Shown here: in pieces, positions 7,619-63,816 of the stretch
Layout of the letters: every line of letters starts with the position of its first letter
How positions within the stretch are numbered: the stretch's first letter is position 1
The notes under the pieces: model-generated
Database searches by the model: none
Told to the model about the DNA's origin: nothing
Seen by the model: the letters and a program-made list of their open reading frames with translations, nothing else
IMG/VR virus record: IMGVR_UViG_2974646641_000001
Coordinates: 1 to 64,000 of that record
DNA from: a virus
Lineage: Duplodnaviria; Caudoviricetes
Length of the DNA stretch: 64,000 nucleotides
Strand: one strand, 5' to 3'
Program-made: the position numbers and the translations under genes

Positions 7619-8908
7619 GTGAAAACAAAGAAAGGTCTTTTGGAAAAGCGCTCGGCTTTAAAGAGCAAGCTGAACGACTTTAAACCAGTTATTGAAGATG
7701 GCACTATTACTGACGAACAATTAGAAGAAATGCGTTCTATCAAGTCAGATATTGTTTCTATCAATGACGAAATCGCAAGTTTAGATGAACAACGCAGTAG
7801 CGCCATTCCTACACAACATAATACACGAGGAGCTGAAAAAAATATGGCAGATTTAAAGAAACTTGAAAAGCGGGCGGCCGCAGAATTATTCCGCGACAAC
7901 ATGCAAGGTAGCAAAGCGGTTCGTGACTATATTGAAGCCGTAAAAGAACATGATGAAGGTCTTGATGTAGAAGACCGTGCACTACCAGACAATGGTTTAT
8001 CATGGGGCCAAGCCGTTGACGGTCAAAAAGCCAACGGTGGTGTTCTCGTTCCTACGACCGTTGCTGATACTATTGTTGAAAAGTTACAAGAAACTTCACC
8101 AGTGTTTGCATTATCAAACAAGATTGGTTCTGTAACTGGTAACTTACGGGTTGTTCGTGAAAGTGATACTTCCGATGATGGTTTCGTTGGTGAACTTGAA
8201 GAAGTAAAAGCACAAACTCCATCATTGAAGTATGTTGAATTAACTCAAAAGCGTGTCGGTGCTTCAATGCAATTATCGAACATGATGATTAACGATGGTG
8301 CTCCTGACATTGTTAGCTACGCTGTTGGCCGTTTGGGCCGTTCATTAGCTAAGGCTATCGAACGCGCCGTATTAGTTGGTGCTAAGACTCCCGAAGCCGC
8401 TTCAAAGACTTTCCGCCCAGTTGTTGCCGCAGATAACGGCGTTCAAGTCGTTCAATTGGCCGGTGCAACTCCTACGTTGGACGAATTGATTGAATTAACA
8501 GCCTCAATTAACCCAGCATATTTAGACCGTGCCGTATTTGTAGTATCTCGTGAAGTGTTCAACGCTTTATCCAAGATGAAAGATGATGATAACGAACACT
8601 TAATCTTCAAGCCACAAATGCAAAACACTATTGCCGGCGCTGTGGCTGTTCGGCCGGGATTCTCATTCCAAGGCATTCCTGTGTTCGTATCTGACCAATT
8701 GAACGGTAACGCAGATGGTCAAATCGTTTTAGGTAACTTTAGTGCTGGTTACACTATTATGACTAAACAAGGGTTGCGTTTAACTCACGTTACTGCTGAT
8801 ACGCAACAAGCACTTGCTGGTGGTCATTTGGTTGTTCTTGACGGCTACATGGACGGTGCTGTTACTAACCCTGACGCATTCGTAGTTGCTAAGCCTGCGA
8901 GTAAGTAA
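7619..8908 (+). CDS. major capsid protein (HK97 fold, N-terminal coiled-coil delta domain)
   Basis: GGVLVPTTVADTIVEKL, FVGELEE, GIPVFVSDQL...LGNFS motifs; follows the protease. Confidence 0.93.
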   Translation: MKTKKGLLEKRSALKSKLNDFKPVIEDGTITDEQLEEMRSIKSDIVSINDEIASLDEQRSSAIPTQHNTRGAEKNMADLKKLEKRAAAELFRDNMQGSKAVRDYIEAVKEHDEGLDVEDRALPDNGLSWGQAVDGQKANGGVLVPTTVADTIVEKLQETSPVFALSNKIGSVTGNLRVVRESDTSDDGFVGELEEVKAQTPSLKYVELTQKRVGASMQLSNMMINDGAPDIVSYAVGRLGRSLAKAIERAVLVGAKTPEAASKTFRPVVAADNGVQVVQLAGATPTLDELIELTASINPAYLDRAVFVVSREVFNALSKMKDDDNEHLIFKPQMQNTIAGAVAVRPGFSFQGIPVFVSDQLNGNADGQIVLGNFSAGYTIMTKQGLRLTHVTADTQQALAGGHLVVLDGYMDGAVTNPDAFVVAKPASK

Positions 8909-9033
8909 TCCGGCTCCCGCGGTCACTGGCGTTACCCCTAACGTGAATAGCGCTACGGTGGTAGCTAAGTAATAAGCCCGATTATTAAACCTCCTCATTT
9001 GAGGAGGTGTACATATCTACATGATAGGAGGTA

Positions 9034-9495
9034 ATGTCCTTGGCAAAGAATTTTGATGTTTATGATAACACGGACAAAAAGGTCGTAACTAATCAACCGT
9101 CCCCCGTTGTTATTTCGGGACTTTCCCCAGCCACCAAGTATTCTGGTTATAAGATTGCCTACACTGGCGAAAGTGCAAAGACAACGATTGATGACTTTAC
9201 AACTACTAACCAAGTGCCCGGCAAGCCGTCATTAGCGGTTAGCGCTGGTGACGGTAAATTAGATGTCACCTTCTCTGACGGTCAGAATGTCGGCACAGCA
9301 GTCACTAAGCGCACTGTTTACTGGAAAACAGCAGATGGCCACAACGGCACTGCCGATTTCGGTACGTCATTAACCGGCTCGGTTGACGGCTTAACAAACG
9401 GCACGGAATATACATTACAAGGTATATGTACAAACGCCGCTGGCGATTCTGAAAAATCAGATGAAGTAAAAGGTACTCCAGTCGCGGCTGGATAA
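9034..9495 (+). CDS. fibronectin type III/Ig-like virion decoration protein
   Basis: VISGLSPATKY, GLTNGTEYTLQ...NAAGDSEKS FN3-like signatures. Confidence 0.7.
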   Translation: MSLAKNFDVYDNTDKKVVTNQPSPVVISGLSPATKYSGYKIAYTGESAKTTIDDFTTTNQVPGKPSLAVSAGDGKLDVTFSDGQNVGTAVTKRTVYWKTADGHNGTADFGTSLTGSVDGLTNGTEYTLQGICTNAAGDSEKSDEVKGTPVAAG

Positions 9496-60459: not shown

Positions 60460-60714
60460 ATGAGAAAAATTGTGCGATTATATGCCGTTAGTGATGAGGA
60501 TTACGCTGTACAGCATTTCTACACGGAGAAAATCTTTGACGCCGGTTTTGATGTTCGGTATAAGTTAGACAAAGATGGTGAAAAAGCAAGTTATTTAGTG
60601 GATTTCGACTTACGTGATTTACCTAAGCTGATGAAAGCTGTTGACGAGGAGATAATTATATCTTATGACAATAATGAATTGGCAATCACAATCTATGATA
60701 TGCCATTTTGCTAA
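60460..60714 (+). CDS. hypothetical protein
   Basis: Promoter TTGCAT-17-TATAAT and AAGGGG SD. Confidence 0.6.
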   Translation: MRKIVRLYAVSDEDYAVQHFYTEKIFDAGFDVRYKLDKDGEKASYLVDFDLRDLPKLMKAVDEEIIISYDNNELAITIYDMPFC

Positions 60715-60731
60715 TTAAAGGAGGAATAATT

Positions 60732-61127
60732 ATGGACTTTACTGAAATGACTAAGAAACTGTTTGCTGGAGAGCTGGTAAGACGGGTTGATTGGAAGCTA
60801 GACTATCACATTTTTATCGCTCCAGACAGTGTTATTGTTGACGAAGACGGGTTCCCTTATAGTTTTTCCAGATATGATTACGAAGCTGAATGGGAAGTCT
60901 ATTCTCCGGCTACCGAAGACCATGAAGCCGGAACAATATTGTCTTACATCACCTTAGATGGTGATAAGAAGCTTTGCGTGTTGGTTGAGGATAGTGACGA
61001 TAATAGCTACGTTATTGTGGATATGAGCGACTGGAGTATTTACGCGAAACACATTAGAAAAGACGACTTAGATATTTTCCTTGACGCATATAGCTTGAAA
61101 AAAGAAAAGAAAACGGAGGACAAATAA
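60732..61127 (+). CDS. hypothetical protein
   Basis: AAAGGAGG SD. Confidence 0.6.
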   Translation: MDFTEMTKKLFAGELVRRVDWKLDYHIFIAPDSVIVDEDGFPYSFSRYDYEAEWEVYSPATEDHEAGTILSYITLDGDKKLCVLVEDSDDNSYVIVDMSDWSIYAKHIRKDDLDIFLDAYSLKKEKKTEDK

Positions 61128-61719: not shown

Positions 61720-61820
61720 TCGCTAAAAATAACGAATAAAATGGTAATTTTACCAAGAAAACAGTTGACAAAAGCGTGCCAGTTTGGTACGCTGTACATA
61801 CAATAAAGGAGGAATGTGAT

Positions 61821-62252
61821 ATGGATATTGGTTTTGCGGCTGGTACTAAGGTGCTAATCAAAAAAGGACAAAAGAATATTGAGAGTGTCACGACCAGAGA
61901 TGAAGTCTTGACAGCCAACGGCACCTATCGGAAAGTGTCACAAAAGATGACTGACAAGTCGGACGATATTTATGAACTGAAAATTCTGTTTCAACCTGAC
62001 ACTAAAGTCACTGGAAACCAACGCTACTGTATTAGGCGAAAAATGGAAGATGGTTATTCACTGTCGAGGTGGGTGCCAGTCAATGACGTTAATGTTGGTG
62101 ATTTGGTAATTGTCTATGTGTTGGACGACACAGCCCCTGTTCATAGACCAGTTAAAGGTATTAAAAAACTGAACGAGGGGCAAAAAGTTTATAGCTTAAA
62201 AACCAATGAAAAACACAGCTTTACAGCCAATGGCGCTGTGGTTCATGATTAA
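61821..62252 (+). CDS. free-standing Hint (intein-like) domain protein with substituted catalytic residues
   Basis: GFAAGTKVL (block A), TGNQRY (block B), VYSLKTNEKHSFTANGAVVHD* (blocks F/G); AAGGAGG SD. Confidence 0.8.
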   Translation: MDIGFAAGTKVLIKKGQKNIESVTTRDEVLTANGTYRKVSQKMTDKSDDIYELKILFQPDTKVTGNQRYCIRRKMEDGYSLSRWVPVNDVNVGDLVIVYVLDDTAPVHRPVKGIKKLNEGQKVYSLKTNEKHSFTANGAVVHD

Positions 62253-62263
62253 AGGAGGAAATA

Positions 62264-62635
62264 ATGGATAATTTAAAGTTTCGTGCATGGATTAAAAAGG
62301 CCGATGGTACTTGCGACAAAGTTAGCCCTATGACAATTCAACAGATGTTACGGCAAGAAACGGCACTTGGATTAGTGTCTTTAGGGGTAACGGATTTAGA
62401 GCAATCAACTAACATTAAAGATAAGAACGGAGAAATTATTTTTGACGGTGACATTGTTCATTTATCAACTCACGATGGATATAAACGAACTGGTCAGGTT
62501 GAGGTTGAAAATGGCCGAGTTAGGATTGTTAGCGAATTAGATTCTTATTCTTTCAGCCGAACTGGTTCCGAAAGTGATACCTTGGAAGTCGTTGGTAATG
62601 TACACGAGGACAAAGAATTATTGGAGAAGGAATAA
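62264..62635 (+). CDS. YopX-family protein
   Basis: KFRAW...QSTNIKDKNGEIIFDGDIV...EVVGNVHE. Confidence 0.8.
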   Translation: MDNLKFRAWIKKADGTCDKVSPMTIQQMLRQETALGLVSLGVTDLEQSTNIKDKNGEIIFDGDIVHLSTHDGYKRTGQVEVENGRVRIVSELDSYSFSRTGSESDTLEVVGNVHEDKELLEKE

Positions 62636-62637
62636 AA

Positions 62638-62916
62638 ATGGACGATGATTTTGAATATGCTGACGCTGTGCTTGTCCAAGTCGACTCAAATGGTAAGGCA
62701 GAAGAATTATGGCTACTGTCAGACGAAGATTTCTTAGACTATATTATTAAAAATGGCATTGATTGTGACTATGCTGTCAAAGGGTTTAAGGCGTGGACAA
62801 TTGCCAAAAGAATTAAGCGTAATGGGTGGCGTCCTACTCTAAAGCAAAGAACCGCAATCACTAACGTGTTCTGTTTTACTCTATATGGAGTGACGCCAAA
62901 TTGGTTAATAAATTAA
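62638..62916 (+). CDS. hypothetical protein
   Basis: GAAGG SD. Confidence 0.6.
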   Translation: MDDDFEYADAVLVQVDSNGKAEELWLLSDEDFLDYIIKNGIDCDYAVKGFKAWTIAKRIKRNGWRPTLKQRTAITNVFCFTLYGVTPNWLIN

Positions 62917-62932: not shown

Positions 62933-63412
62933 ATGATTAAGTTTAGAGCGTGGGACAAGAGAATCGAAGCTTATCTTTATAATGTACAAGACGCTTATGA
63001 CACGTTGAGCGGCTTCGTAAAATATGACGATGGTGAAGACGCTGACTATGATGAGGATTGCTTTGGAGCATTCTTAGATAATAAACGGTATGACGTTGAG
63101 CAGTTTACCGGATTGAAAGACGTGAACGGTAAGGAAATCTATGTTGGCGATATTATCCAGTATAACGAACATTACTACGCATATTCTATGGGTGGAGTAA
63201 CAAATATCAAAACTGAATATATTGGAATTGTTGTTAAAAATAATTGGTCTTTAGGGATTTTAATTAATAAAGTTATCCATACAGACGCGCATATCAATCA
63301 TTATAATACTAAAGAATTTGTGCCGTTTCGTGATTTTGAAGACCCAGAGGCAGATGTGTTGTTAAAGGGCAACGTTCACGCTAACCCAGAGCTATTGGAG
63401 GAAGACGAATGA
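62933..63412 (+). CDS. YopX-family protein
   Basis: IKFRAWD...QFTGLKDVNGKEIYVGDII...KGNVHANPELL. Confidence 0.85.
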   Translation: MIKFRAWDKRIEAYLYNVQDAYDTLSGFVKYDDGEDADYDEDCFGAFLDNKRYDVEQFTGLKDVNGKEIYVGDIIQYNEHYYAYSMGGVTNIKTEYIGIVVKNNWSLGILINKVIHTDAHINHYNTKEFVPFRDFEDPEADVLLKGNVHANPELLEEDE

Positions 63413-63816
63413 TTAAAGTTTATCGTAAAACAGCCACTATCAAGGCCGAACAGTTTGATAATAGTAGAGAGATGGCTAAAAAGTATCATGTTGAATATGA
63501 TGGAGCATACATTTTACCTTTCAGAATTGAAACCAAGAATGGGTGGCTAGGAATGAAAGTTGGTGACTGGATTTTAACTGATACAGACGGAAAGCACTGG
63601 CCGATTGCAGATGACGTATTCAAAAAGACGTATGACGAACTGCCAGTGATTCCTAAAGAGGTAGCGGATTATCTTGAAGTTGTCAGACAGGAAGAAACAC
63701 TGTTTGGTGTTTTAGATGAGGCACTAGCAGGGGTTAGCGACTTATCTCTGTGGATTGCTGAGAACCAAGATAATTTTGCCCGTGCGTGGCTAGACGGTTA
63801 TACGGTGGAGGAATAA
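63409..63816 (+). CDS. phage protein with DUF1642-like C-terminus
   Basis: PVIPKEVADYL...FARAWLDGYTVE. Confidence 0.65.
   Translation: MIKVYRKTATIKAEQFDNSREMAKKYHVEYDGAYILPFRIETKNGWLGMKVGDWILTDTDGKHWPIADDVFKKTYDELPVIPKEVADYLEVVRQEETLFGVLDEALAGVSDLSLWIAENQDNFARAWLDGYTVEE

Follow-up and report, generated by a model that had tools for sequence, protein, structure and literature searches.

Inteins are usually regarded as selfish elements, with a splicing domain that is useful only in cis. To our knowledge, the yeast HO endonuclease is the one well-known domestication, and there it was the endonuclease domain that was kept, not the splicing domain alone. BIL and PT-HINT domains lie in larger, variable proteins and cleave via Cys1 and/or His-Asn. 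The HO and WHO endonucleases of budding yeasts are domesticated, extein-less relatives of inteins that perform no protein splicing (Coughlan et al. 2020, PMC7282813). Our literature search found no description of extein-less mini-Hint proteins of phages.

Here we analysed a 64,000-nt stretch of phage DNA (the window; positions 1 to 64,000 of IMG/VR record IMGVR_UViG_2974646641_000001). Among the relatives of the source phage are the Lactiplantibacillus plantarum siphophages Maenad and Satyr (Tybeckvirinae). Near the end of the window lies a gene that was predicted, from the letters alone, to encode a solitary Hint domain with no exteins and with all key splicing residues substituted. Its 143-aa product is 100% identical to A0A1S5RCV4, an uncharacterised protein of Lactobacillus phage P1, and is labelled as of unknown function in both UniProt and PHROGs. 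The evidence set out below suggests that a self-splicing fold has probably been put to a new, non-splicing use.

Table 1. Features of the Hint gene, its leader and the genes that follow it, in window coordinates
Feature	Position	Strand	Details
Promoter-like block: TTGACA (61765-61770), 17-nt spacer, TACGCT (61788-61793)	61765..61793	+	Direct reading
TACATA in the leader, between the -10 and the RBS of the Hint gene	61795..61800	+	Conserved in Maenad and Satyr
Shine-Dalgarno AAAGGAGG, 8 nt before the ATG	61805..61812	+	Identical in Maenad and Satyr
CDS, free-standing Hint protein (P0001)	61821..62252	+	ATG 61821, TAA 62250-62252; 143 aa
Gly4 (GGT), intein position 1	61830..61832	+	Cys in nearly all of ~80 canonical domains (one Ser); Gly in 31/31 variants
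Block B, T64-G-N-Q67 (ACT GGA AAC CAA)	62010..62021	+	Gln for catalytic His; Q67 in 31/31 variants
Block F region, V123-Y-S-L-K-T...H132-S-F-T-A-N-G	62184..62234	+	Alignment
Block G end, H142 (CAT), D143 (GAT), TAA replacing the +1 nucleophile	62244..62252	+	Direct reading, alignment
YopX	62264-62635	+	Apparently co-transcribed with the Hint gene
orf92	62638-62916	+	Apparently co-transcribed with the Hint gene
YopX, second	62933-63412	+	Apparently co-transcribed with the Hint gene
DUF1642 protein	63409-63816	+	Apparently co-transcribed with the Hint gene

An exhaustive phmmer search returned 349 matches at E ≤ 1e-3 and, besides five other representatives of the same family (142-144 aa), almost all of these are canonical inteins. 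The best match outside the family is to two mini-inteins in a radical-SAM protein (37% identity, E 3e-33), and many of the other matched inteins interrupt Dcm methyltransferases and a DnaE-like polymerase. An AF2 model based on an alignment of 24 sequences has a pLDDT of 95.2 and a pTM of 0.87; the ESM Atlas's own model of the protein has a pTM of 0.86. Foldseek searches with the AF2 model (TM 0.75-0.82, E 4e-9 to 1e-6) matched a BIL domain, the gp41-1, Prp8, RecA and NpuDnaB inteins and a Hedgehog Hint domain, the top match being the BIL domain of C. thermocellum. All Pfam matches fall within the Hint clan, every one of them under its gathering score, including a match to PT-HINT over residues 13-138 (22.4 bits versus a cut-off of 27.7). 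Once Hint families were excluded, no resemblance to any family was found. The 143-aa protein is a true homologue of class-1 mini-inteins and a member of the Hint superfamily, with the horseshoe-shaped all-beta fold and blocks A, B, F and G, and the original prediction of a mini-intein-sized Hint fold is borne out.

The protein matches phrog_21587, and we considered whether this is a sign of a 706-aa parent. This was rejected, as only profile positions 534-706 match in the source phage, Maenad and Satyr. The length of the profile reflects other, intein-containing members, because the control genomes that match it are those of intein-bearing archaea.

Is the protein, then, an intein? Residues were mapped by aligning it with ~80 canonical intein domains, and a family set of 31 distinct variants, all 142-144 aa long, was gathered via cluster look-ups. 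Nearly all canonical relatives have Cys at position 1, T-x-x-H in block B, and H-N followed by Cys; the family pattern is Gly, (T/A)-G-(N/S)-Q and, mostly, (H/D)-D followed by a stop. The alignment confirms the Gly at position 1, the TGNQ form of block B and the HD-stop ending that had been read from this copy alone. Cys1, the block-B His, the terminal Asn and the +1 residue have all been lost, yet T64, H132 and H142 are retained here, and the broader statement that all key splicing residues are substituted goes slightly too far for this copy. Across the family, position 64 (block B, canonical Thr) is Thr in 15 variants and Ala in 16, position 132 (block F, canonical His) is His in 15, Gly in 12 and Ser in four, and the penultimate position 142 (canonical His) is His in 17, Asp in 12, Tyr in one and Asn in one. 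The terminal position 143, canonically Asn, is Asp in 30 variants and Asn in one. The C-terminal ends are HD, DD, YD or ND, once HN, and then a stop. S125 occupies a site that holds N or D in canonical relatives. Constraint on the helper catalytic residues is thus relaxed, and the replacements at position 1 and in block B are fixed. The codons involved lie close to their canonical counterparts: GGT is one base from TGT, CAA one base from CAY and GAT one base from AAT.

The predicted lack of exteins extends to all members: only three to five residues (three in this protein) stand ahead of position 1, and the stop codon comes straight after the last residue. A word-based search among longer proteins, which is weak evidence, found no longer or fused family members. 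Read-through or fusion of the Hint gene with the next gene was rejected, given two in-frame stops and a next ATG in another frame.

Fold and homology apart, none of the features that define inteins was found. Relative to class 1, the protein lacks exteins, a Cys, Ser or Thr at position 1, a block-B Thr-x-x-His, and a His-Asn with Cys, Ser or Thr at +1. Relative to class 3, block F is without Cys, there is no WCT-type motif, and the sole Cys (C70) is not conserved. Assignment to class 2, class 3 or the split inteins was rejected on residues. Nor is it a BIL or PT-HINT domain, being stand-alone at 143 aa, devoid of the catalytic residues and below the PT-HINT cut-off. A length of 143 aa leaves no room for an endonuclease of the HO/WHO type, and Pfam finds no nuclease or zinc finger.

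With no nucleophile at position 1, no +1 residue and no block-F Cys, the protein should be unable to splice or to cleave itself at its N or C terminus. All three known splicing mechanisms, as well as simple N- and C-terminal cleavage, would be impossible under established intein chemistry (e.g., PMC7765530). Residual or new chemistry, acting in trans or via non-canonical residues, strikes us as very unlikely. Class-2 and class-3 inteins show that a nucleophile is not required at position 1 (PMC2807308), and Gln67 and Asp143 of the phage family are strongly conserved. However, the protein has no +1 residue and neither a block-F Cys nor a WCT-type motif, its single Cys is not conserved, and the family can dispense with His at both the penultimate and the block-F position.

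Selection on the gene was assessed with four DNA sequences. Relative to the Maenad allele, amino-acid identity is 59%, with pS 0.74 (saturated), pN 0.24 and a pN/pS of 0.32; the Maenad and contig L010 alleles compared with one another give a pN/pS of 0.18. When the 148 observed substitutions were placed randomly in a neutral simulation of 20000 runs, the frame was open in 57 (0.3%), and simulated amino-acid identity had a mean of 38% and a maximum of 49%, versus the 59% observed. The Hint gene is kept by selection and is not decaying. The earlier argument that it is not a pseudogene thus holds, given this pN/pS at saturated pS, the 31 intact variants and the rarity of open frames under neutrality.

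These results bear directly on the idea that the gene is a functionless relic, an intein stranded by deletion of its host gene that persists because it is young or by hitch-hiking with the operon promoter. As such a relic might display, one base change suffices for each of the three key replacements (C to G, H to Q and N to D), the helper catalytic residues drift and amino-acid divergence is high compared with the neighbours. Yet the frame is open despite saturated synonymous sites and encodes far more of the same amino acids than neutral change would leave, every one of the 31 distinct variants falls within 142-144 aa with Gly1 and Gln67 invariant, and the RBS and promoter are conserved. We consider a relic improbable.

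Constraint on the protein is only moderate, since its pN lies far above that of the neighbouring MazG at a similar pS: MazG has pS 0.59 and pN 0.04, and the Hint gene evolves about six times faster non-synonymously. Non-synonymous change is the main reason why nucleotide identity in the Hint gene is low. Genes upstream have also diverged synonymously (pS 0.59-1.0), and those downstream were recently shared (pS 0.15-0.23). The upstream genes are therefore old, and the 3' end of the Hint gene marks a recombination boundary; a swapped cassette within identical flanks was rejected, as the upstream genes are synonymously diverged too. The pI varies by allele, from 9.3 here to 5.2-5.7 in others. There is thus no common electrostatic surface, and nucleic-acid binding via a basic surface was rejected given this range of 5.2 to 9.3.

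The gene carries its own predicted expression signals. The predicted 143-aa ORF is real, although 61765, given as its beginning, is the first base of the -35 hexamer and the ORF starts at the ATG at 61821. Upstream of the promoter-like block is an A/T-rich stretch. The -10 hexamer TACGCT matches the consensus at 3/6 positions, and for this reason the promoter is absent from the list produced by a consensus scan. The RBS is strong, and the promoter-like block, RBS and first nine Hint codons are 87-95% identical in Maenad and Satyr, with DNA further upstream unalignable. The TACATA of the leader belongs to a hexamer that is under-represented in the window (27 sites versus 44.6 expected); no further sense-strand copy follows it in the window, and it is the sole one in the plus-strand early region after 34777. 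The site could serve to separate off transcripts that read through from the MazG genes upstream.

A longer start at GTG 61776 would parallel the 169-aa annotation in Maenad and Satyr. It was rejected: it crosses the promoter and RBS, and independent gene calls pick the ATG. The deposited 169-aa coding sequences, Maenad gp028 (L001 3920-4429) and Satyr gp031 (L002 3920-4429), begin 81 nt upstream of an RBS-preceded ATG and overrun the promoter-like block, and the true product is probably 142 aa in each. This upstream extension has also found its way into the phrog_21587 profile (positions 534-571).

The promoter elements, TACATA and Shine-Dalgarno sequence of the original prediction are all present, but the gene is not a solitary transcription unit. 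The next gene, a YopX gene, begins 12 nt past the Hint stop, and no terminator-like site was found after the Hint gene or between the downstream operon genes; the Hint gene is therefore the first of an operon. The order Hint, YopX, orf92, YopX, DUF1642 is common to Maenad, Satyr and the metagenome contig L010. The operon includes two YopX-family paralogues, followed by a further related pair, the DUF1642-type gene and a partial ORF from 63820, and this part of it therefore consists of small duplicated accessory genes. In Satyr, a free-standing HNH endonuclease gene (L002 4799-5344) lies between the YopX gene and orf92, and is absent from the window and from Maenad. Among the neighbours of the Hint gene, only MazG has an assigned function. 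Two genes upstream, a 139-aa ORF (60708-61127) assigned to phrog_6670, a group of unknown function, has a weak, sub-threshold match to the Tad2-like domain of Thoeris anti-defence (E 0.003, 18.5 bits versus a cut-off of 25).

Such a setting raises the question of whether the protein takes part in anti-defence or host takeover, as a decoy or trans-inhibitor that docks early in infection on host Hint proteins (polymorphic toxins, inteins) or on some other target. The gene sits in an early accessory region behind its own promoter-like block, its neighbours include a MazG-like protein and the weak Tad2-like match, its evolution is fast but constrained, and its structural neighbours include PT-HINT toxins of Bacillota. 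However, no PADLOC matches were found at E ≤ 0.1, a weak test given that PADLOC covers defence systems and not anti-defence, and the literature search turned up no known anti-defence protein of Hint fold. The phage itself has no other Hint domain anywhere in its 73.8-kb genome, which also led us to reject the protein as an inhibitor of the phage's own inteins. The original proposal of a decoy or trans-inhibitor of host Hint toxins or defence proteins therefore found no support, and we judge an anti-defence role unlikely.

Do other phages carry such proteins? Within the species collection, no bacterial genome carries the family. Searches for solitary Hint homologues, which had been proposed with the original prediction, recovered the 31 family variants; a profile search restricted to short proteins added a second phage family without exteins, ~159 aa long (P0147, P0156-P0166). 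Its members occur on viral metagenome contigs of up to about 50 kb, with up to 70 contigs for one cluster. They start with MEKVLNNS-Y/F-F, their position 1 is Tyr or Phe, their block B reads T-x-N-Q, and they feature a conserved DGSGHIY insert and a tail of x-D-N-S plus seven residues. No loci of this family were found in IMG/VR, and its only phage-database matches sit inside a 565-aa protein. The ESM Atlas holds several viral clusters of Hint-only size, and BFVD a few 144-172-aa phage proteins named "Hint module".

Some larger proteins depart from the canonical intein layout as well. P0103 (318 aa) looks like a free-standing relative of a full-length intein, with a central insert, Tyr at position 1, T-L-N-Q in block B and no visible exteins, a layout that resembles HO. 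Five proteins (P0023, P0050, P0135, P0139 and P0060) have three or four tandem Hint domains, each ending in His-Asn-Lys, an arrangement that is polyprotein-like and unlike ordinary inteins. At locus L009, two adjoining phage proteins (5980-7950, 656 aa; 8131-9486, 451 aa) have N-terminal Hint domains with Gly1 and a block-B Gln. Both domains keep His-Asn (VHN), followed by long low-complexity cargo, and this design would permit only C-terminal self-cleavage. The 656-aa protein also has a second domain at its C-terminal end, either a Cys1-type Hint or a Vint-like one.

The L009 proteins suggest another origin for the 143-aa family, as the remnant of a self-cleaving N-terminal pro-domain that descended from a Gly1/Gln-type Hint ancestor and whose cargo was separated or lost. 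The 143-aa family, the ~159-aa family and the L009 domains each form a monophyletic group in a tree built from 83 Hint domains. Trees that join these groups are not rejected (AU p 0.47 and 0.65), the higher value being for the tree that unites the 143-aa family with L009. The G1, block-B Q and VHN-then-cargo layout of the L009 proteins, the start of the next gene only 12 nt past the Hint stop and the one variant that still ends in HN also accord with this origin. But canonical inteins (37% identity) resemble the family more than the L009 domains do (26-29%), the word-based search turned up no Hint-YopX fusions, and such a history accounts for the origin of the gene, not for the retention of a solo gene. 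We regard it as doubtful, to about the same degree as the relic.

On balance, we lean towards the view that the protein is an exapted, catalytically dead mini-intein that acts non-catalytically, most likely by binding a partner. A class-1 mini-intein may have shed both exteins to become an independent gene, and the resulting gene would have come to head a promoter-led accessory operon in Maenad/P1-like L. plantarum siphophages. Given the loss of catalysis, its product presumably acts by contact with a partner. Contact would be made through the rigid horseshoe, probably at the cleft that blocks A, B, F and G form and in which inteins accommodate their two splice junctions. This cleft is suggested because the backbone motifs of the blocks, together with Gly1 and the block-B Gln, are fixed while the helper catalytic residues drift, although conservation of the block motifs could reflect fold stability alone.

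Should a dead splicing domain indeed have been selected in a virulent phage, the Hint fold would be re-usable as a non-catalytic module, and the 143-aa protein, for which a laboratory phage and host are at hand, would be small and tractable for learning what such a module does. Whether solo Hints form a recurrent, unrecognised class of phage accessory proteins is a more tentative matter; we see it as less likely than not that the splicing domain was re-used at least two or three times (143-aa, ~159-aa and L009-type). If so, the non-nucleophile at position 1 and the block-B Gln that appear each time might indicate that the former active-site cleft has taken on the same new activity in all of them, possibly the clamping of a host or phage peptide in early infection. 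The combination of Gly or Tyr at position 1 with a block-B Gln, seen across several phage lineages, offers a simple signature for finding more proteins of this kind.

How does the protein compare with what has been described? No described system works as it does. The class-1 mini-inteins that phages and Bacillota carry (with Dcm, radical-SAM and DnaE-like hosts) are homologous to it over the full length and share its blocks A, B, F and G, its fold and its size (~135-145 aa). It differs from them in having no exteins and in the substitution of Gly for Cys1, Gln for the block-B His, Asp for Asn and a stop for the +1 Cys. BIL and PT-HINT domains have the same Hint fold, whereas the phage protein lacks both their larger protein context and their cleavage residues. 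The ~159-aa family and the L009 domains resemble the 143-aa protein in being short viral Hint proteins that have no nucleophile at position 1 and a Gln where block B normally has His. Their identity to it is only 22-32%; the former differs by the DGSGHIY insert and an eight-residue tail after D-N, the latter by His-Asn and the long cargo. The nearest precedent is HO/WHO, likewise stand-alone, intein-derived genes that lack exteins, do not splice and were retained for a new role. However, HO and WHO cut DNA with a retained LAGLIDADG endonuclease and have gained a zinc finger, the parts in which the job of HO resides, whereas the phage protein is the bare splicing domain and belongs to a separate lineage.
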